NCBI GenBank assembly: GCA_963663165.1 | Contig: OY760175.1 | Location: forward strand, 6,016,001 to 6,080,000 | Direction of reading: 5' to 3' | DNA: 64,000 nt | DNA from: an uncultured Desulfospira sp. | Lineage (GTDB): Bacteria > Desulfobacterota > Desulfobacteria > Desulfobacterales > Desulfobacteraceae | Shown: positions 28,962 through 37,345 of the stretch, one piece after another | Numbering within the stretch: position 1 is the first letter of the stretch | How the letters are laid out: each line of letters opens with the position of its first letter | The notes under the pieces: generated by a model | Seen by the model: only the letters and a program-made list of their open reading frames with translations | Told to the model about the DNA's origin: nothing | The model's database searches: none | Made by a program: the position numbers and the translations under genes

Positions 28962-31169
28962 TCATCCCACACACCCGAGGCTCGGGTCCTGGACCACAAT
29001 GGTCCGTCTTCGTTTCTTCTTTTTGACCTGGCACATCAGGGTTTTGTAAACCGGAAATCCTGAAATGGGGTCAAATTGTGCCAGATCGGTCAACACGTTG
29101 ACATTGGCCTTTCGCCAGGACTCAGGTCCATGGGGGCCGCCGCCCCCGGCCGGGGCGTAAACAAAGCCTTCCATGACCTTTTCGGTGACATCGGCCTTCA
29201 TTTCCACAAACCCCCTGGCGGTTTTTATTACCACCGTGTCTTTGGGGGCAATGCCCCGTTGTTCGGCATCTTTGGGGTTGATCTGAACCATGGGGTCCGG
29301 GTACCGGTCGATGAAGTCGGGGATGGCCCGAAGGCAGGATTTCATGTCCGGCTTGAAGGGTCCCGTCCCTAAGACCAGGGGGAACCGGTTTACCATTTTG
29401 GGCCGGCTCACAGGGGTTTCAAAGGATTCTTCGTATTTGGGCAGCCCCTCAAGCCCCATTTTTTCCAGCAGGGTGGATTTGATTTCAAACTTGCCTGACG
29501 GGGTTTGAAACCCGGGTTGGCCGTCGGCCCTTAACAGGCCTTTTTCCCATTTGCGGAAGGCCATGGGAAGCTGTTTTTTTTGAACCGCCTTTTTAGGGGC
29601 CTGTTCCAGGTCCTGCCGGGAGATGCCGGTGCCGGTCAGAACACGGTCCAGCAGGTCGGCTTCGGTTTTGGGGAATTTGTCCCCATACCCGAGCCTGTCG
29701 GCAAGCCCGGTTAAAATGGCAAAGCAGGACCGGCTGTTCCCCACCGGATCGATCATTTGCTCCCTGAGCCGGACCGTATGGCCGTAAAAACAATAGGATG
29801 ACTGCTCAAAGGCCGTGGTGGCCGGCAGGACAATATCGGCCCAGGCCGCATCCCGGGTCAGCTGCAAATCGGCACAGACCATGAAATCCAGGGATTCAAA
29901 CGCCTTTTGCCATAGAACCGGGTCAGGCCATGATGTGAGAATGGAGGCCCCCATGATAAACAGGCCCCGGATTTTATACGGATCTGAGTCAAGGATGGCC
30001 TTTGGCAGCCTTATGGCATGGGGTTCGCCGCCGCAAAAATGGGTATACACCGGGAAGTGGCCTGCGCCAATGGACTTGTCAAATCCGGGACTTAAAATCT
30101 GGTGGTCCCGGCTTAGGCCAATCTGGTTTTCAGGCTGGACAAAGCAGCGGCCGCCTTCCACATCCAGCTGCCCGGCCAGGGCCCAGAGAACCTGGACTGC
30201 CCGGATGTTCTGGACCCCGGATTTGGTGTATTCAAGCCCGGTGTACATCACATAGCTGGCCCCTTCGGCGTCGGCAATATCCACTGCCAGTGCTTCAATC
30301 ACCTTTTGGGGGATCCCGGTAATCCCGCTGACCGTTTCCGGGGTAAAATCCTTGACATATTTGGTAAACTCTTCGTACCCCAGGGTCCAGTCTTCCACAA
30401 AGGCTTGGTCCACCCAGCCGTCCCGGATCAGGATATGGGACAGGCCAAGGGCCAGGGCGCCGTCCGTCCCCGGCCGGATGGGGATCCACTGGCTGTCAGG
30501 CAGCTTGGCCGAAGCGGTCTGTCTGGGATCGATAACAATGATCTGGGCGCCTTCACTGGCGGCCCGGACCAGGCGGCCGAACATTTCCGGCGGGGTGGAC
30601 GTGGACGGGTCGGTTCCCCATACAACGATGAGGTCAGAGTTGTCCACATCGGAAAACATGTCCGTGTGAAGGCAGCCCATGGTCAGCTGGGGGGCCAGCA
30701 CCCCAAGGGAGGTGTAACAGGGCGCGCCCACCCCGAAGGTATTGGGCGACCCAAAGGGAAACAAAATGCTTGAAGCCAGATAAATATGAGATCCCCCCAG
30801 TTGAAAGGCATCCTTGAAGGCCCGCTCATAGGTGCCGGTACCGGCGTAAAATCCAAAGGCTTCGGGGCCGTGGTCCGCTTTGATGCCTTCCATTTTCCCG
30901 GCAATGATGTCATAGGCCTCATCCCAGGAGATGGGGTCAAAATCCAGTTTGCCTTTGGGGCCTTTCCGTTTCAGGGGCTGTTTGATCCGGGCTTTGGAGT
31001 AGATGATCTGGGAGGCGCTGGCCGCCAGTGGACAAAGAACGCTTCCCAAAGGCGCTTCAGGGTCCGGGGTCAGCCGTTCAATTTTTCCGGACTCGTCAAA
31101 ATGGACGGTAACGCCGCAGCCCGGGCTGTGAAAACATAATCCGCAAATGCCGTGTTGTTGTTTTTCCAA
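28962..31169 (-). CDS. cytoplasmic Mo/W-bisPGD enzyme, acetylene-hydratase-like; resembles the metallopterin module of ergothioneine synthase MES
   Basis: N-terminal 4Fe-4S Cys cluster (CGLCFHSPGC...LCP), ISWDEA, FGSPNT..APC, IRPGTD, ADIVLPATT, molydop_binding C domain; no Tat signal; TTG start after AAGGAG. Confidence 0.88.
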   Translation of the reverse strand: MEKQQHGICGLCFHSPGCGVTVHFDESGKIERLTPDPEAPLGSVLCPLAASASQIIYSKARIKQPLKRKGPKGKLDFDPISWDEAYDIIAGKMEGIKADHGPEAFGFYAGTGTYERAFKDAFQLGGSHIYLASSILFPFGSPNTFGVGAPCYTSLGVLAPQLTMGCLHTDMFSDVDNSDLIVVWGTDPSTSTPPEMFGRLVRAASEGAQIIVIDPRQTASAKLPDSQWIPIRPGTDGALALGLSHILIRDGWVDQAFVEDWTLGYEEFTKYVKDFTPETVSGITGIPQKVIEALAVDIADAEGASYVMYTGLEYTKSGVQNIRAVQVLWALAGQLDVEGGRCFVQPENQIGLSRDHQILSPGFDKSIGAGHFPVYTHFCGGEPHAIRLPKAILDSDPYKIRGLFIMGASILTSWPDPVLWQKAFESLDFMVCADLQLTRDAAWADIVLPATTAFEQSSYCFYGHTVRLREQMIDPVGNSRSCFAILTGLADRLGYGDKFPKTEADLLDRVLTGTGISRQDLEQAPKKAVQKKQLPMAFRKWEKGLLRADGQPGFQTPSGKFEIKSTLLEKMGLEGLPKYEESFETPVSRPKMVNRFPLVLGTGPFKPDMKSCLRAIPDFIDRYPDPMVQINPKDAEQRGIAPKDTVVIKTARGFVEMKADVTEKVMEGFVYAPAGGGGPHGPESWRKANVNVLTDLAQFDPISGFPVYKTLMCQVKKKKRRRTIVVQDPSLGCVG

Positions 31170-31172
31170 AAT

Positions 31173-32129
31173 TTATTGGGCTCCTTTTTGCCGCTGGGCA
31201 ATGACAAACAAAGAGGTGATGTGTTCCCAGAGGTTTCTGGTTTTTCTGATTTTCCACAACACCTGTCCCTTGTCCTGGATTTCAAATTCAGGGGAAAAAA
31301 TGCCGTTAACGCCTTGAAGCAGGCGGCAGACATTGTCCATGCCAAACCCTTTAAACGGGCCTTCATTTTTCCCCCCAAGCCAGAGATCCGGGCTGTTGAC
31401 CCCCTCGTCCCAGGAAAAAGGGTCAGACAGCAGAAATCTTGCGCCATCAGGATCCATGACCCGGTTGGCTTCGGCCAGGTGACGGGCCGGGTCCGGCACC
31501 TTTTCTAAGATATTCACCGATCCTGCCATGGCAAACCGGTTGGATCTAAAGGGCAGGGCCATGGCGTCGGCCACCAGGAATTCAGCGTTTTCAAGCTGAT
31601 AGCCCGGGTCCAGATCGCAGGCCCTTTTTTTTGTGATCTGCCCTTCCATGATCATGTCAAACTCAAGCCGTCCGGTTTTGGACAGGTTCCGGGCCGCCCG
31701 AATAAAGGACCAGGAGGTGTCAATGCCGATGGCCCGGTCATGGGTCTTGGTCAATTCAAAGGTCAGCCGCCCCACGGAACAGCCAATATCCAGTGCAAAC
31801 CCGTCCTGGGGGGTAAACGCAGCCGCCCATCGTTGATAGGCATCGGTTGCATCGGGCCCGTTGAAAAATTCAGAATAATGGCTCCACAGATAAGACGACA
31901 GCATGGAAAATGACCCATAGCCTGCCGTGTCCCGGGTAAGGGGCAGGGTCTTTTCCGGGACAACCACGGCAATTCCCTCATGGATGTCATACCGCCTTGT
32001 ACACTCAGGGCAGACCAGCTGCCCGTCTATAATTTCATCTTCTGTTTCTATTCGGCTGTCCAGGGTGAGCGGGATTTCCTTATCCAGGCACTCGGGACAG
32101 ATCAGTTCTTCAATCATCCACTTTCTCAT
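31173..32129 (-). CDS. Trm112-like Zn ribbon fused to a class I SAM methyltransferase resembling the OvoA C-terminal domain
   Basis: CPEC..CPEC..YDIHEGI; LSSYLWSHY, ALDIGCSVGRLTFEL, GIDTSWSFIRAA, SDPFSW..WLGG, WKIRKT..WEH. Confidence 0.8.
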   Translation of the reverse strand: MRKWMIEELICPECLDKEIPLTLDSRIETEDEIIDGQLVCPECTRRYDIHEGIAVVVPEKTLPLTRDTAGYGSFSMLSSYLWSHYSEFFNGPDATDAYQRWAAAFTPQDGFALDIGCSVGRLTFELTKTHDRAIGIDTSWSFIRAARNLSKTGRLEFDMIMEGQITKKRACDLDPGYQLENAEFLVADAMALPFRSNRFAMAGSVNILEKVPDPARHLAEANRVMDPDGARFLLSDPFSWDEGVNSPDLWLGGKNEGPFKGFGMDNVCRLLQGVNGIFSPEFEIQDKGQVLWKIRKTRNLWEHITSLFVIAQRQKGAQ

Positions 32130-32190: not shown

Positions 32191-32523
32191 CCTTTTTTAA
32201 CGGATTTCAAATGGTATTTCAGGGAAGGAAAAAGACGGGAAATGCGTTGTTTCGACCGGGTTCAGTGAAAAGAATAATCGGGTTAATCCAATAAAATGGG
32301 GGAGACCGAAAACCGGAGACAGGAGACCGGATGCGCCCCTCCAAGGGAACCCAACATCCGGTGTCTATCGTTACATTTTTGGTCAATGCAAGGTAGGCCC
32401 AGGGAACTTGCCGTATTCGGTCTCCCGTCTACCTTCCTCCGGTCTTCCTTTTTTATAATCTGACACCTTATCTTGTTCCCTGGTTCTAAATTAAACACCC
32501 CCCTTCCTGCCCGGCGGGCATAA

Positions 32524-32573
32524 AAAAACCGCACCGTTTCAGGAAAGCAGCTTCCTTTAACGGTGCGGTTTTT
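32524..32573 (-). terminator. intrinsic terminator after the decarboxylase operon
   Basis: AAAAACCGCACCGTT / AACGGTGCGGTTTTT inverted repeat with U-tract. Confidence 0.75.
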
Positions 32574-32625: not shown

Positions 32626-33744
32626 TCACCCGCCCAAAAGGGTTAAGAAGATACCGGCTGCGATGACGGTACCGATGACCCCGGCCACGTTGGGGCCCAT
32701 GGCGTACATGAGCAGATAGTTTTTCTTATCGGCCTCCATGCCCACCTTGTGGACCACCCGGGCGGCCATGGGAACGGCCGATACCCCGGCAGCACCCAGC
32801 AGCGGGTTGATCTTGTTTTTGGAAAACAGGTTCATGAGCTTGGCCAGGATCACCCCGGTCATGGTGGAGATGATAAAGGCGAACAGTCCCAGGAAAAAGA
32901 CAAAGATCACCTGGGGCCGCAGGAAATTTTCCGCATTCATGGTGGCGCCCACCGGCACCCCTAAGAATATGGTGACAATATTCATCAGCTCATTCTGGGC
33001 CGCATCGTGCAGCCGTCCCACCACGCCGGATTCCCGGAACAGATTGCCGAGCATGAACATGGCGATCAGGGGCGCAGACGCCGGGACCAGCAGGATAATG
33101 ACAAAGGTCGATACAATGGGAAACAGTATTTTCTCAAGTTTTCCCACCTTTCTGCCCTTTTTCATGCGGATTTTTCTTTCATCCTCTGAGGTCAGCAGCT
33201 TCATCACCGGGGGCTGGATAATGGGCACCAGGGCCATATAGGAATAGGCGGCCACGGCACAGACCCCCAACAAAGAGGGGGCCAGCTTGGATGCCAGAAA
33301 TATGGTGGTGGGCCCGTCCGCCCCGCCGATAATGCCGATGGTGGCGGCCTCCTGAAGATCAAACCCAAAGGCCTGGGCCGCAAAAAAGGTGATGTACACC
33401 CCGGCCTGGGCCCCGGCCCCTAAAAAGATCAGCCGGGGATTGGCAATGAGCGGCCCAAAATCCGTGAGCGCCCCAAGGCCTAAAAAAATCACCGGCGGAA
33501 TGATCTCCCAGTGGATCCCGTACTCGTAAAACTTCCACAGCAGCCCTTCTTCAGGGGTCATGAGCCCTGCCAGGGGCAGGTTGACCAGGATAATCCCGAA
33601 CCCGATGGGCAGCAGGAGCAGGGGTTCATAGTTTTTGGCAATGGCAAGGTAGATCAGGACAAGGCCGATGATCCACATCACCACAATCCCCGGGGTGACA
33701 TAAAAAAGGCCGGTGGTCTGGAACAGGGAAAGGAATGATTCCAT
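32626..33744 (-). CDS. gcdB: Na+-translocating decarboxylase beta subunit
   Basis: [48 protein letters not shown]. Confidence 0.95.
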
Positions 33745-33902
33745 TATTTGGCCTCCTTTGATGTGTCGGACTCTGCGGCTTTACCCCGCGCTTCATAGGC
33801 GGTCACCGCAACCCCGGTCAGTCGGATGGAAAGGTAAAGAAATGCCATTCCAAGGAACACGCCGAAAATTCCCGCAACAAAAACCCCTACTGGTCCTGTC
33901 AT
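33744..33902 (-). CDS. decarboxylase small membrane (delta/OadG-like) subunit
   Basis: 52-aa single-TM ORF ([23 protein letters not shown]...) coupled to the alpha and beta genes. Confidence 0.8.
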
Positions 33903-35662
33903 GACTGGTTCCTTTCCTTTTCCGTTGCATGGTCCCTGATAATCCTGGGCAGGATCATCTGGTGCTGGGGACAAATGGATTTGGGATTCTGGTAAGCAGA
34001 ACCGGTAAAGGCCTGCATGTACTTTCTAAGGTCGGACAGTTTGACCACCTCGTCCACCATGCCCTGTTTGGCGCAGAACAGCGGGGTGGAGGTGTCTTTG
34101 TATTTCTGGGCCAGCTGGTTCATCTTTTCCACTACCGGAGAAAGATCCCTTCCGGCTTCCTTTTCTTTTACCAGGCGTCTGGCATAGGTGGCCACCGCCG
34201 CGGTTTCCCCGTGCATCACCTGGATTTCAGTGGCACAGGTGCCCAGGGTAAAGGCGTTGTTCCGGTTGGCCTGGGGACCGCCCATGACATAATGGGCGGC
34301 CGCACTGCCCTTGCGAAGGATGGCCAGCATCATGGGAAGGCCGGACTGCTGGATGGAATAGATCAGGGACTGGCCAAGGCCGAGCAGCTCAGCCTTTTCG
34401 GCAATATCGCCCACATCAATTCCAGAGGTATCCTGGAACCAGATCACCGGAATTCTGTCCCGGCCGCACAGGGTCACAAACTCGTTCATCTTGATCAGGC
34501 CCTGGCGGTACAGCTTGGACCCGATGCCCGGATAATCGGCATACTCGGGATACCCTTTGCCCAAATACCCCTGGCGGTTGCCGATGCAGGCCACCAGATA
34601 TCCGTCCACTTTGCACAGCCCGGTGTAAATTTCAGGACCATAGTCAGGCCGGTATTCCATATGCTCGGAACCGTCCACCAGGCGGGCCAGGATTTCATCA
34701 AAATCGTACACGGTTTTAGGCGCCAGGGGCAGCAGACGCATGACATCATCCGCCTCAAAGGCCGGGGCCTTGGGTTCGGCTACCCGGAAAAAGACCGGAT
34801 CATAGGCCGGCATTTTGGCCATATAATCCTTGACGCCGTCCAGGACCTCTTTTTCTTCCTTGTACACATACCGGAAAAACCCGGTATGGTCATAGTGGGT
34901 GGAGACGGCTCCCGGGGGTTTGGCCCGGTGTTCTTTGGCTTTTGTCACCAGATCTTCAGCCATGTCCACGGTGAACCCGCCCTGGGGGGCCATGCCGCTG
35001 ACAATACCGGCACCGCCTACGGCCATGTTGCATTTTTCATGGGCAAACAAAATCGTGGGGGAAATGGACTGGTATCCGCCGCCGGCCGGATTGGTGCCGT
35101 AAATGGCGGCCAGAACCGGGATGCCCTCCTGCTCAAGCTCAGCATGGCGGAAAAAGGGTGTTCCCGCACCCCGCCGGTTGGCATAGAACTTTTCCTGCTC
35201 AGTGAGTTTGGCACCGCTGCAGTTGACCAACCAGACCAGGGGCACGTTCAGCCGTTTGGCAAGGTCGGTAACCCTCAGGATGTTTTCCGACTGGCCGGCC
35301 AGCCAGGCACCGGCCATGACCTTGTTGTCAAATCCGATCAGAACGCACCATTTGCCGGAAATCTTGGCCAGACCGTCAATGACGTTGGTGGTGCCTTCCA
35401 CGTTATCGGCCGGGTTAAACAGGGTGTGAAGGGGGGTAAAGGTGCCCGGATCGACAATGTATTCAATCCGCTGCCATACGGTCATCTGTCCCCGCTGGTT
35501 GATTTTTTCTTCGGGGAGCCCTGCGTTTTTAACCTCGTTGACAGCGGCGTCAATGCCCTGTTCCGCTGCAGTTACGGCATCATAATTTTCCTGGGTCCGC
35601 TTCAGGGTGCCTGCTTTTAAGGCTTTCCCAAACGGGGCCATATGTTCAAAATAGGATCTCAT
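33899..35662 (-). CDS. gcdA: glutaconyl-CoA decarboxylase alpha (carboxyltransferase) subunit
   Basis: Carboxyltransferase motifs (NCSG, GTNPAGGGY, QDTSGIDVG, KGSAAAHYVMGGP); adjacent to acd. Confidence 0.92.
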   Translation of the reverse strand: MRSYFEHMAPFGKALKAGTLKRTQENYDAVTAAEQGIDAAVNEVKNAGLPEEKINQRGQMTVWQRIEYIVDPGTFTPLHTLFNPADNVEGTTNVIDGLAKISGKWCVLIGFDNKVMAGAWLAGQSENILRVTDLAKRLNVPLVWLVNCSGAKLTEQEKFYANRRGAGTPFFRHAELEQEGIPVLAAIYGTNPAGGGYQSISPTILFAHEKCNMAVGGAGIVSGMAPQGGFTVDMAEDLVTKAKEHRAKPPGAVSTHYDHTGFFRYVYKEEKEVLDGVKDYMAKMPAYDPVFFRVAEPKAPAFEADDVMRLLPLAPKTVYDFDEILARLVDGSEHMEYRPDYGPEIYTGLCKVDGYLVACIGNRQGYLGKGYPEYADYPGIGSKLYRQGLIKMNEFVTLCGRDRIPVIWFQDTSGIDVGDIAEKAELLGLGQSLIYSIQQSGLPMMLAILRKGSAAAHYVMGGPQANRNNAFTLGTCATEIQVMHGETAAVATYARRLVKEKEAGRDLSPVVEKMNQLAQKYKDTSTPLFCAKQGMVDEVVKLSDLRKYMQAFTGSAYQNPKSICPQHQMILPRIIRDHATEKERNQS

Positions 35663-35696
35663 TTAAAACCTTCCTTGAAGTAGAAAAGAGTGGAAA

Positions 35697-35912
35697 CTAG
35701 TCAATTACCGCCAGCAGATCGTCTTCTTCAACGGAATCACCTTCCTTGACCTTGATTTCCGATACCGTACCGGAACAGGGTGCAAACACAGGGGTTTCCA
35801 TTTTCATGGCCTCAATGACCATGATTTCGTCATCTTCTTCCACGGCAGCACCGGGCTCAAGGCTCAGGCTGACAATTTTTCCGGACAGGGGGGCTAATAC
35901 GTCTTCAGACAT
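35697..35912 (-). CDS. gcdC: biotin carboxyl carrier subunit
   Basis: EAMKM biotinylation motif. Confidence 0.93.
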   Translation of the reverse strand: MSEDVLAPLSGKIVSLSLEPGAAVEEDDEIMVIEAMKMETPVFAPCSGTVSEIKVKEGDSVEEDDLLAVID

Positions 35913-36076
35913 GGGGGTCTCCTTTTTTGTATGCTTTTGGCTGTTAGCTATTTGCTGTCAGCGGTTATTGGGCTGTCAAATTTTTGCACTTATTGGCCAG
36001 ACTCTGCAATAAAATGACAGCTAAAGGCCAATAATATTCAACAAATTAACCCAAATCAATACTAAATGCTATTTTT

Positions 36077-36122
36077 TGTCAAGAAATTTTTAATCAGATT
36101 TTTAATCAGATTTTCCTTGACA
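36077..36122. promoter_or_regulatory. divergent promoter region with direct repeats
   Basis: TGTCAA (minus -35) ... ATTTTTAATCAG x2 ... TTGACA (plus -35) between gcdC and acd. Confidence 0.5.
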
Positions 36123-36181
36123 TCAACTGAAAATTTCTGTTTATCTAACCCTATAGTGCCAAATAACCTTAAGGAGACAAT

Positions 36182-37345
36182 ATGGATTTTCAATTATCTA
36201 AAGAACTTCAAATGCTTCAAAAAGAAGTCAGAAAATTTGCCAAAAAACAGATTGAGCCCTATGCCGACCAGTGGGATCAGGACCATTATCTGCCTATTAA
36301 AGAGGTAATGAAACCTTTGGGCGAGCTCGGATACTTCGGTACCGTGATTCCCGAAGAATACGGCGGAGAGGATATGGGATTCCTGGCCGCCATGATCGTC
36401 ACCGAAGAACTGGCAAGGGTGAGCTCATCTTTGCGGGTGCAGGTCAACATGCAGGTTCTGGGCTGCGCCTATACCATTTTCAGATACGGCAATGACGAAG
36501 TTAAAAAGAAATATGTCGAAAAACTTTGCACCGCCGAATATATCGGTGGATTCGGCATTACCGAGCCCGATGCCGGTTCCGATGTCATGGCCATGAGCTC
36601 CACCGCAGAAGACAAAGGGGACCACTGGCTCCTCAACGGCAACAAGACCTGGATCTCCAACGCCAATGTGGCCGATGTACTGCTCTACTATGCCTACACA
36701 GACAAATCCGCCGGCTCCAAGGGATTGTCCGCCTTTGTCATTGAACCCAAAAACTTTGAAGGCATCAAGACATCTTCCCTTGAAAAAATGGGATCCCATT
36801 CTTCCCCTACAGGCGAACTGTTCCTGGACAACGTCAAGGTGCCCAAGGAAAATATCCTGGGCAAACCCGGCGACGGCGCCAAGATCGTATTCTCCTCCCT
36901 TAACCAGACCCGTCTGTCTGCTGCCGCCGGCGGCATTGGGCTTGCCCAGGCCTGCCTGGATGCGGCCACCAAGTATTGCAACGAAAGAAAGCAGTTCGGC
37001 AAAAAGATTGGTGAATTCCAGATGAACCAGGACATGATCGCCCAGATGACCGCAGAAATCGAAGCCGCCAGACTGGTGGTTTACAAAGCGGCCTGGGCCA
37101 AAGACCAGGGCAATCTCAACAACGGGCTGGACGTTGCCATGGCCAAATACCTGTCCGGCGAAGTCGTTTCCAAGTGTGCCAACTATGCCATGAGAATCCT
37201 GGGCGCTTACGGGTATTCAACTGAATATCCGGTGGCCAGATACTATAAAGACGCCCCCACGTATTACATGGTGGAAGGGTCTGCCAATATCTGCAAGTGG
37301 ATTATTGCCCTGGACCAGCTGGGCATCAGGAAAGCCAATCGGTAA
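36182..37345 (+). CDS. acd: glutaryl-CoA dehydrogenase, non-decarboxylating
   Basis: Acyl-CoA dehydrogenase motifs (ITEPDAGSD, GAYGY, YMVEGSANI); closely resembles the Desulfococcus-type Acd as recalled; divergent from gcd genes. Confidence 0.9.
   Translation: MDFQLSKELQMLQKEVRKFAKKQIEPYADQWDQDHYLPIKEVMKPLGELGYFGTVIPEEYGGEDMGFLAAMIVTEELARVSSSLRVQVNMQVLGCAYTIFRYGNDEVKKKYVEKLCTAEYIGGFGITEPDAGSDVMAMSSTAEDKGDHWLLNGNKTWISNANVADVLLYYAYTDKSAGSKGLSAFVIEPKNFEGIKTSSLEKMGSHSSPTGELFLDNVKVPKENILGKPGDGAKIVFSSLNQTRLSAAAGGIGLAQACLDAATKYCNERKQFGKKIGEFQMNQDMIAQMTAEIEAARLVVYKAAWAKDQGNLNNGLDVAMAKYLSGEVVSKCANYAMRILGAYGYSTEYPVARYYKDAPTYYMVEGSANICKWIIALDQLGIRKANR

Follow-up and report, generated by a model that had tools for sequence, protein, structure and literature searches.

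What might a molybdenum or tungsten enzyme and a methyltransferase make together when their genes stand side by side, three nucleotides apart? The question is raised by two adjacent genes in a 64,000-nucleotide (nt) stretch of DNA from an uncultured Desulfospira sp. (GenBank assembly GCA_963663165.1, contig OY760175.1, positions 6,016,001 to 6,080,000; hereafter the window, whose numbering we use). According to the open reading frame (ORF) listing and translations, the first gene of the pair (31173..32129, minus strand) encodes a 318-residue S-adenosylmethionine (SAM)-dependent methyltransferase, P0002. The second (28962..31169, minus strand, TTG start) encodes P0001, a 735-residue, predicted cytoplasmic enzyme that would carry Mo or W on a bis-pyranopterin guanine dinucleotide (bis-PGD) cofactor. 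An earlier note, made from the DNA letters, had proposed that the pair forms an anaerobic route to ovothiol or a related thiohistidine, with P0001 acting like a metallopterin-dependent ergothioneine synthase (MES). The reading that we favour, with a probability of about 55%, is that the two enzymes would insert sulfur into histidine without oxygen and N-methylate the imidazole ring, giving ovothiol A or its 2-thio isomer.

P0001 has the Pfam domains Molybdopterin and Molydop_binding, and its best solved relative is acetylene hydratase (2e7z, approximately 200 bits, E 4.2e-58). The MES-like blocks that the earlier note had quoted (ASSILFPFGSPNTFGVGAPCY, MYTGLEYTKSGVQNIRA, GASILTSWP and DPISGFPVYKTLMC) are all in the translation. 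A search for related loci with P0001 gave 80 loci, which split cleanly into two groups. One, which we call the short clade, comprises 24 loci (L001-L023 and L052) with proteins of about 735 residues that are 64-96% identical to P0001. The other 56 loci (L024-L080 without L052) form a MES-type group, 45-51% identical over P0001 residues 2-717. Forty-two of these encode proteins of at least 1050 residues, 10 are cut by contig ends, two are broken and two are truly unfused (L079 and L080). The long protein tested, of the approximately 1130-residue type (L074, uncultured Caldithrix), joins a Mo module to a NifS-type cysteine desulfurase. Furthermore, a gene cluster defined by BLAST is represented in 26 of the 56 loci, and the member of it that we tested proved to be EgtD (TIGR03438, 363 bits; cut-off 290.9 bits). 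Because of this fusion and the adjoining EgtD, we identify the long relatives as MES.

An exhaustive search of 1.84 billion representative proteins with P0001 ranked a short-clade protein of 735 residues first (1052 bits), followed by a MES of 1139 residues (780 bits) and an L079-type protein of 735 residues (668 bits); the rest scored at most 515 bits. In an IQ-TREE phylogeny (33 rows, LG+G4), the short clade grouped with MES at 100/99 support and was itself supported at 100/100 on a stem of 0.52. The short clade, MES and the clade of L079, L080 and P0125 together were also supported at 100/99, and two FastTree runs agreed on the placement of the short clade. As judged from these comparisons, and as the earlier note had supposed, P0001 is no outsider to the MES family; it is an unfused member or a sister of it. 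The short clade was found only in Thermodesulfobacteriota-type genomes, and MES across many phyla.

Several relatives of P0001 have settings of their own. L079:1-4706 and L080:3665-8145, both from Chloroflexota metagenome-assembled genomes, encode unfused relatives of 718-727 residues in the clade next to MES and the short clade. They adjoin MttB-family (trimethylamine-type) methyltransferase genes and an IclR regulator, and it is possible from this gene content that they are loci for the breakdown of ergothioneine or trimethylhistidine. At L033:5974-11031, from a Zixiibacteriota metagenome-assembled genome, a frame of 1685 residues opens with the MES Mo module; the desulfurase match stops at residue 1076, some 600 residues short of the end, and an EgtD-cluster gene lies just upstream (L033:4956-5966). 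Genome G216 has a 53%-identical unfused enzyme and no methyltransferase match at E<=1e-20. The source genome itself has three Mo paralogues of 711-717 residues, 35-38% identical to P0001 (G000:C1:4272660-4274759, 3574966-3577032 and 3824396-3826432; L092-L094). As read from the ORF ends, L092 and L093 have an adjacent ORF of about 170 residues with a ferredoxin-like Cys motif and then one of 320-330 residues with an N-terminal GNGGAAAH; in L094 a comparable ORF lies some 400 nt downstream of the paralogue, and a hydrophobic ORF of 434-435 residues adjoins the paralogue in L093 and L094.

Are the residues needed for MES-type chemistry present in P0001? Four cysteines (C9, C12, C18 and C46; 31032..31145, minus strand), at least 90% conserved in a 51-sequence alignment, form a predicted [4Fe-4S] motif with the spacing CX2CX5C, including an inserted F-H-S, where MES has CX2CX3C. 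The predicted metal ligand, Cys151 (codon 30717..30719, minus strand; GVGAPCY), is invariant in the 51 sequences and aligns with the Cys of the MES motif GVGALCY. In the Caldithrix abyssi enzyme (CaMES), Cys153 is the metal ligand and the C153S variant is inactive, according to the available part of that report (PMC9516567). The short clade and MES share 189 conserved positions at which the residue is identical. At a further 35, each clade conserves a residue of its own; these switched positions gather around the ligand Cys (P150L, T153V, L155F, G156A and V157M) and at 109-131 and 600-619. This is the pattern expected for enzymes with the same chemistry and a different substrate. The acetylene hydratase motif CQSCD aligns with CGLCF in P0001, which places Phe13 where acetylene hydratase has, directly behind its second cluster Cys, a catalytic Asp.

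P0001 has no fused pyridoxal phosphate (PLP)-dependent cysteine desulfurase; it ends at residue 735 and has no aminotransferase class V domain by Pfam. Its C-terminus is a polybasic linker and Cys tail, QVKKKKRRRTIVVQDPSLGCVG (28965..29030, minus strand), with Cys733 in a DP[ST]LGCxx motif at the extreme end (DPSLGCVG in P0001). The motif is kept in 114 of 120 homologues; the final tetrapeptide reads GCVG in 72 and GCGG in 40. In an AlphaFold model of P0001 (mean predicted local distance difference test score, pLDDT, 90.7; predicted template modelling score, pTM, 0.91), residues 721-735 have pLDDT <50 and are disordered. Neither MES nor the L079/L080 clade has this tail. In CaMES, both the penultimate Cys1135 and Cys1074 of the desulfurase are essential, and the part of the report available proposes a persulfide relay to the metal (PMC9516567). 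As the P0001 tail cannot be aligned to that of MES (...RFLPCK after the desulfurase), the likeness of Cys733 to Cys1135 is an analogy and no demonstrated homology. Some short-clade members end without the Cys tail: L021:5998-8169 ends in ...KKKSAYDAG, and the match in genome G160 stops at residue 719.

The methyltransferase has two parts. Residues 1-59 (31953..32129, minus strand) form a Trm112-like zinc ribbon with four cysteines, CPEC...CPEC (Pfam PF03966, Trm112p, at residues 9-52; NCBIfam NF038101 gives 40.5 bits over residues 1-59, under its 77-bit cut-off). Residues 75-309 (31203..31907, minus strand) form a class I methyltransferase domain resembling the OvoA C-terminal domain (OvoA-C) and OvoM, according to NCBIfam and PDB matches. 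The top family is TIGR04345, ovoA_Cterm (110 bits, E 1.3e-31), which aligns from model position 5 to 238 of 242. The runner-up methyltransferase family reaches 35 bits (E 7.7e-9), and the EgtD model TIGR03438 gave no match at E up to 0.001 in the NCBIfam search. Thus P0002 prefers the OvoA C-terminal model over generic methyltransferases and is not EgtD-like, just as the earlier note had argued from motifs that we also read in the translation (LSSYLWSHY, ALDIGCSVGRLTFEL, GIDTSWSFIRAA, SDPFSWDE..LWLGG and IRKTRNLWEH). Matches to ArsM-type families (E 1e-5 to 1e-8) cover only the SAM-binding core, some 60-100 residues. The closest solved structures are OvsM (9bxh, 3.3e-27, 98.6 bits), OvoM (9bxl, 7.7e-18) and OvoA (8khq, 8.2e-17), with the fourth match at only 1.2e-8.

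Twenty-nine positions are conserved and identical across the P0002-type methyltransferases (tier 1), a sister subfamily described below (tier 2) and bona fide OvoA-C/OvoM. Many lie outside the SAM-binding core, and they include Y71, Y80, H84, D114, G116, R121, E125, D137, P237, W240, W250, G253 and R295. Charged and aromatic positions kept with the bona fide proteins are R121, E125, E162, R295, R313, W240 and W250. The Trm112-like domain is present in all three groups of Zn-ribbon methyltransferases and is missing from true OvoA-C/OvoM. By these sequence measures, P0002 belongs to a distant subfamily of the OvoA-C superfamily and is not an equivalog. Among longer relatives, the only fused architectures were two OvoA proteins, and no fusion of methyltransferase and Mo enzyme was seen, which is weak evidence. 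The third Zn-ribbon group (L130:3932-7245, L133:2645-5187 and L132) has OvoA-C-like methyltransferases of 363-400 residues scoring about 100 bits, which lie among small ORFs of 127 residues. At L130, the sole locus of this group scanned, one small ORF has a PAAR motif and a gene for a B12-binding radical SAM protein lies upstream.

How constant is the partnership? A P0002 homologue lies immediately upstream of the Mo enzyme gene in 22 of the 24 short-clade loci; of the two exceptions, L022 has just 151 nt upstream and L016 has an unrelated ORF of 315 residues there. Beside the MES-type genes, a P0002-type methyltransferase was found in none of the 56 loci. We also examined a class sample of 401 Desulfobacteria genomes, counting the Mo enzyme at 64% identity or more. 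The short-clade enzyme is carried by 44 of these genomes, with the methyltransferase directly upstream on the same strand in 40. In G124 and G160 the methyltransferase is on another contig, and in G346 and G369 the locus is broken at contig ends. Cultured carriers among the matches are Desulfobacula phenolica, Desulfosarcina ovata, Desulfosudis oleivorans and Desulfocicer vacuolatum. The pairing is far beyond chance, and the pair is conserved, as the proposal would have it.

Fused MES occurs in 10 of the 401 genomes, of which G300 alone also has the short pair; because this genome has both, their products are probably not redundant. OvoA-size frames occur in eight genomes, none of them among the 44 carriers of the Mo enzyme. 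The source genome, a single 6.74-Mb contig that is 96.7% complete, has no match to EgtD either genome-wide or in the operon, and no OvoA N-terminal domain (best ovoA_Nterm match 45 bits, against a 400-bit cut-off). For OvsA or selenosugar genes, nothing was found beyond that 45-bit match, the OvoA/SenA-type N-terminal model being the sole search aimed at them. A NifS is encoded elsewhere in the genome (610 bits).

Bona fide ovothiol enzymes do occur in Desulfobacteria. Full-length OvoA, in which the O2-dependent sulfoxide synthase is joined to the methyltransferase, is encoded at L122:2579-4801, L124:2693-4813, L123, L125 and L126, an odd finding in presumed strict anaerobes. Those at L122 and L124 score 688-695 bits on the OvoA N-terminal model. 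True stand-alone OvoM-type methyltransferases, above the cut-off at 309-341 bits, are at L129:3980-4741 and L128:3518-4744. Both have a DUF4416 gene about 1-1.6 kb away and no OvoA N-terminal domain in the stretch examined.

The layout of the two genes agrees with a joint function. The methyltransferase stop codon TAA (31173-31175) is followed by ATT and then by the TTG of the Mo enzyme gene (31167-31169), a gap of 3 nt. The predicted ribosome-binding site of the second gene, AAGGAG (31181..31186, minus strand), read directly, lies inside the first, 11 nt upstream of the TTG, so that the close spacing and the embedded site reported in the earlier note are visible in the DNA. Its other observations on the locus also hold: the domains are those of a Zn ribbon with a SAM-dependent methyltransferase (Trm112p and a class I methyltransferase domain) and of a Mo/W-bis-PGD enzyme. 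Moreover, P0001 begins directly at the Cys motif LEKQQHGICGLC and therefore has no twin-arginine translocation (Tat) leader. Pfam and NCBIfam scans of the neighbouring genes showed no Fe-S, membrane or Tat-related partner beside the pair, and no transporter, peptide, carrier or selenium-donor gene within the operon.

We regard the pair as its own two-gene unit, because a hairpin and a non-coding gap precede it and a convergent gene follows it. Approximately 390 nt upstream of the methyltransferase gene are non-coding. The 5' boundary is a hairpin with a T-run (32522..32570, minus strand), found by eye after the stop codon of the glutaconyl-CoA decarboxylase beta-subunit gene; it reads AACCGCACCGTT...AACGGTGCGGTT and then TTTTT, with a perfect 12-bp stem. 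A promoter and terminator consensus scan gave nothing useful, and the hairpin was unlisted there because its loop exceeds 8 bases. The downstream neighbour is a convergent family 2 glycosyltransferase (GT2) gene. By analogy with the systems discussed below, the odds are slightly in favour of a self-contained operon for an oxygen-independent metabolite of the thiohistidine type.

On this basis, we propose a model for how the two enzymes may act. If P0001 works as MES does, Cys151 would hold a Mo(VI)=S centre whose sulfur passes to an imidazole carbon of histidine; with EgtD missing from the genome, trimethylhistidine is not the expected substrate. The metal, once reduced, may then be re-sulfurised by a persulfide on Cys733 of the flexible C-terminal tail. 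A housekeeping cysteine desulfurase acting in trans could load this tail, or the load could come from the sulfane sulfur of the cell, in which sulfate reducers are rich. The overall insertion of sulfur(0) into a C-H bond is redox-neutral, which fits the absence of electron-transfer subunits. The Zn-ribbon OvoM-like methyltransferase, by homology, would N-methylate the ring afterwards, the order being suggested by OvsM, which does not methylate histidine itself (bioRxiv 10.1101/2024.04.10.588772, in the part available). The product would be ovothiol A if sulfur enters at C5, the position that it has in 5-thiohistidine, on which OvoM-type enzymes act. If it enters at C2, the carbon that MES attacks, a new N-methyl-2-thiohistidine would result.

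A bolder version of this model can be put forward only tentatively, at well below even odds. It would make the pair the first O2-free pathway to ovothiol A, in which P0001 thiolates C5 of histidine with a persulfide on its own swinging C-terminal Cys arm and a Zn-ribbon relative of OvoM methylates N-pi, and which is common in marine sulfate reducers (44 of 401 genomes). A second, independently recruited Mo clade with the sister methyltransferase would do likewise, so that Mo-dependent thiolation of heterocycles would be general and repeatedly evolved.

A number of results weigh against the proposed pathway. The 110-bit score of P0002 lies below the curated equivalog cut-off of 170 bits for TIGR04345, a model that gives 309-349 bits to the four bona fide OvoA and OvoM scanned from Desulfobacteria, and a branch of about three changes per column separates the Zn-ribbon methyltransferases from true OvoA-C/OvoM; the identity of the substrate is thus not secured. 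The sister subfamily pairs differently. Tier 2, which is 40-45% identical to P0002 and present in 22 genomes of the class sample, precedes a different Mo enzyme of about 685 residues in nine of the 13 loci fetched, forming a second two-gene unit (L108:5893-9025, L110, L113-L116 and L119-L121). This type-2 enzyme shares 28-31% identity with P0001 and falls on the opposite side of the family tree. It carries a CxxCxxCC motif, lacks the Cys tail and has acetylene hydratase (267 bits) as its best solved relative. It follows that the Mo partner of such a methyltransferase need not be a MES-type enzyme. Two clades of Mo enzymes have either come to the same role by convergence, or the chemistry that the partners serve reaches beyond thiolation of the MES type. 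Genome G124, where the Mo enzyme is of the short clade and the unlinked methyltransferase of tier 2, hints as a single case that the methyltransferase tiers are interchangeable.

Sulfur delivery is the other difficulty. The scans showed no desulfurase, rhodanese or carrier gene beside the pair, and a desulfurase supplied on a separate chain fails to complement CaMES, in the part of the report available (PMC9516567). The Cys tail is missing in six of the 120 homologues, L021 included. In addition, the methyltransferase does not adjoin the Mo enzyme in L016/G124 and G160, and MES monophyly has a support of just 77/43, so that the short clade may be sister to MES or derived from within it. Of the route put forward in the earlier note, then, the parts open to computation stood: the OvoA-C preference of the methyltransferase, the MES affinity of the Mo enzyme and the conserved pairing all came out on its side. 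We take its interpretation as partly supported, the fit being loosened by the sub-cut-off score on a long branch, by the non-MES partner of the sister subfamily and by the lack of a fused desulfurase.

Could the same facts be explained in another way? The chemistry may be as proposed, Mo-dependent insertion of S or Se with methylation, and the substrate different: histamine, urocanate, an imidazole acid, another heterocycle, or histidine in a peptide or protein, with the Trm112-like Zn ribbon as a macromolecule- or partner-docking module. The distance of P0002 from OvoM speaks for this, as do the presence of the ribbon in all three Zn-ribbon groups and not in the true enzymes, the clustering of the switched positions around the ligand Cys, and the selenium enzyme OvsM being the closest solved methyltransferase. 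The MES authors also suggest, in the part of their paper available, that sulfurisation of heterocycles may be the activity of many Mo enzymes not yet characterised (PMC9516567). We consider such a substrate unlikely, though a serious contender, since the seven charged and aromatic positions kept in P0002 fit an amino-acid substrate of the same kind and the operon is without peptide, carrier or selenium-donor genes. A larger departure would be that P0001 is an ordinary cytoplasmic oxidoreductase or hydratase of the acetylene hydratase/dimethyl sulfoxide reductase kind, whose substrate might for example be an unsaturated compound or an S- or N-oxide, that the methyltransferase modifies its product or a metalloid, and that no thiohistidine is made. 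Acetylene hydratase is indeed the best solved relative of P0001 and is nearer still to the type-2 partner, and P0002 has its weak ArsM-type matches. We hold this to be distinctly improbable, because the MES representative scores 780 bits against 200 for acetylene hydratase and groups with P0001 at 100/99, the Asp of acetylene hydratase is replaced by Phe13, the ArsM-type matches are confined to the SAM-binding core whereas the OvoA-C match spans the whole domain, and enzymes of this kind have no use for the conserved terminal Cys tail.

The reaction might also run the other way, with the Mo enzyme removing or exchanging sulfur on imported thiohistidines and the methyltransferase tailoring the salvaged compound. 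The MES reaction is chemically reversible, and exchange of sulfur between ergothioneine and trimethylhistidine persists in CaMES when its desulfurase is inactive (PMC9516567, in the part available). A desulfurase-free enzyme is what such a role would need, and the neighbouring unfused clade of L079 and L080, with its MttB-family genes and IclR regulator, looks catabolic. A SAM-dependent methyltransferase, however, is a biosynthetic and not a catabolic partner, the conserved Cys tail suggests sulfur delivery, and the operon has no transporter gene; salvage thus seems very unlikely to us.

The genes around the pair were considered as possible participants. On one side are polysaccharide glycosyltransferase genes and a flippase gene, and on the other glutaconyl-CoA decarboxylase and glutaryl-CoA dehydrogenase genes. 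We rejected a role for these neighbours, which are not conserved beside the pair in other loci. An ORF of 83 residues (32283-32534) was likewise taken as non-coding, given its position in the leader region and the lack of a family match in Pfam and NCBIfam. Just upstream of the pair, window positions 32626-37345 hold a glutaryl-CoA dehydrogenase gene (NF045552, 795 bits, Desulfococcus type) with the glutaconyl-CoA decarboxylase subunit genes, a module for anaerobic degradation of aromatics or glutarate that is typical of Desulfobacteraceae.

What would the proposed pathway add? Thiohistidine antioxidants fall into two classes, ovothiol and ergothioneine, and ergothioneine has anaerobic routes (EanB and MES). 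In the literature examined, ovothiol is traced only to OvoA, which depends on O2 and iron. To our knowledge, MES is the only family of Mo enzymes that forms C-S bonds. If the proposal is right, thiohistidine biology would extend to strict anaerobes, and this enzyme family would gain a second function, carried out by a MES-type enzyme that works without a fused desulfurase by means of a C-terminal Cys arm. The two genes would also be a compact cassette for fermentative production, and the 2-thio isomer, if it is the product, would be a new natural product. The public names are generic, 'molybdopterin-dependent oxidoreductase' for P0001 and 'methyltransferase domain-containing protein' for P0002. 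A full-text literature search returned no such oxygen-free ovothiol route, only the MES paper, reviews and unrelated papers; the MES supplementary tables, which possibly list unfused homologues, were outside its scope. The available part of a September 2026 review gives only OvoA for ovothiol (PMC13603875).

Each half of the proposed system has known counterparts. Acetylene hydratase (2e7z), like P0001, is a non-respiratory single subunit with a [4Fe-4S] cluster and a Cys ligand; it differs in having Asp at the position of Phe13 and is far less similar to P0001 than MES is. The OvoA/OvoB pathway, with stand-alone OvoM (9bxl, 8khq), has the same predicted logic of histidine thiolation followed by ring N-methylation, and P0002 matches the whole OvoA C-terminal domain, including the 29 family positions. 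OvoA forms its C-S bond in an O2- and iron-dependent reaction, through a cysteine sulfoxide and a lyase; genes of that kind are missing here, as judged by the search with the OvoA N-terminal model. P0002 differs from OvoA in its extra Trm112-like Zn ribbon, its score under the cut-off and its long separate branch. In the ovoselenol pathway, the closest solved relative of P0002, OvsM (9bxh), stands alone as a methyltransferase and works only once the chalcogen is in place; its partner OvsA, a non-haem iron enzyme, depends on O2 and uses a selenosugar (bioRxiv 10.1101/2024.04.10.588772, in the part available). The anaerobic EanA/EanB pathway to ergothioneine resembles the proposed route in its O2-independent transfer of sulfane sulfur to imidazole. 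EanB differs in being a rhodanese-like transferase, without sequence relationship to P0001 as far as the part of the MES report available goes (PMC9516567).

The MES/EgtD system of C. abyssi (Beliaeva & Seebeck 2022, PMC9516567, in the part available) has the most in common with P0001. Both enzymes are cytoplasmic and without redox partner subunits, and both have an acetylene-hydratase-like module for a bis-molybdopterin guanine dinucleotide (bis-MGD) cofactor, a Cys metal ligand, an N-terminal four-Cys cluster, a Cys at the extreme C-terminus and a co-encoded SAM methyltransferase. They differ in the spacing of the cluster and at the 35 switched positions. Where MES has a fused PLP-dependent cysteine desulfurase, P0001 has DPSLGCVG on a polybasic linker, and where the partner of MES is EgtD, that of P0001 is an OvoM-like, predicted ring N-methyltransferase.

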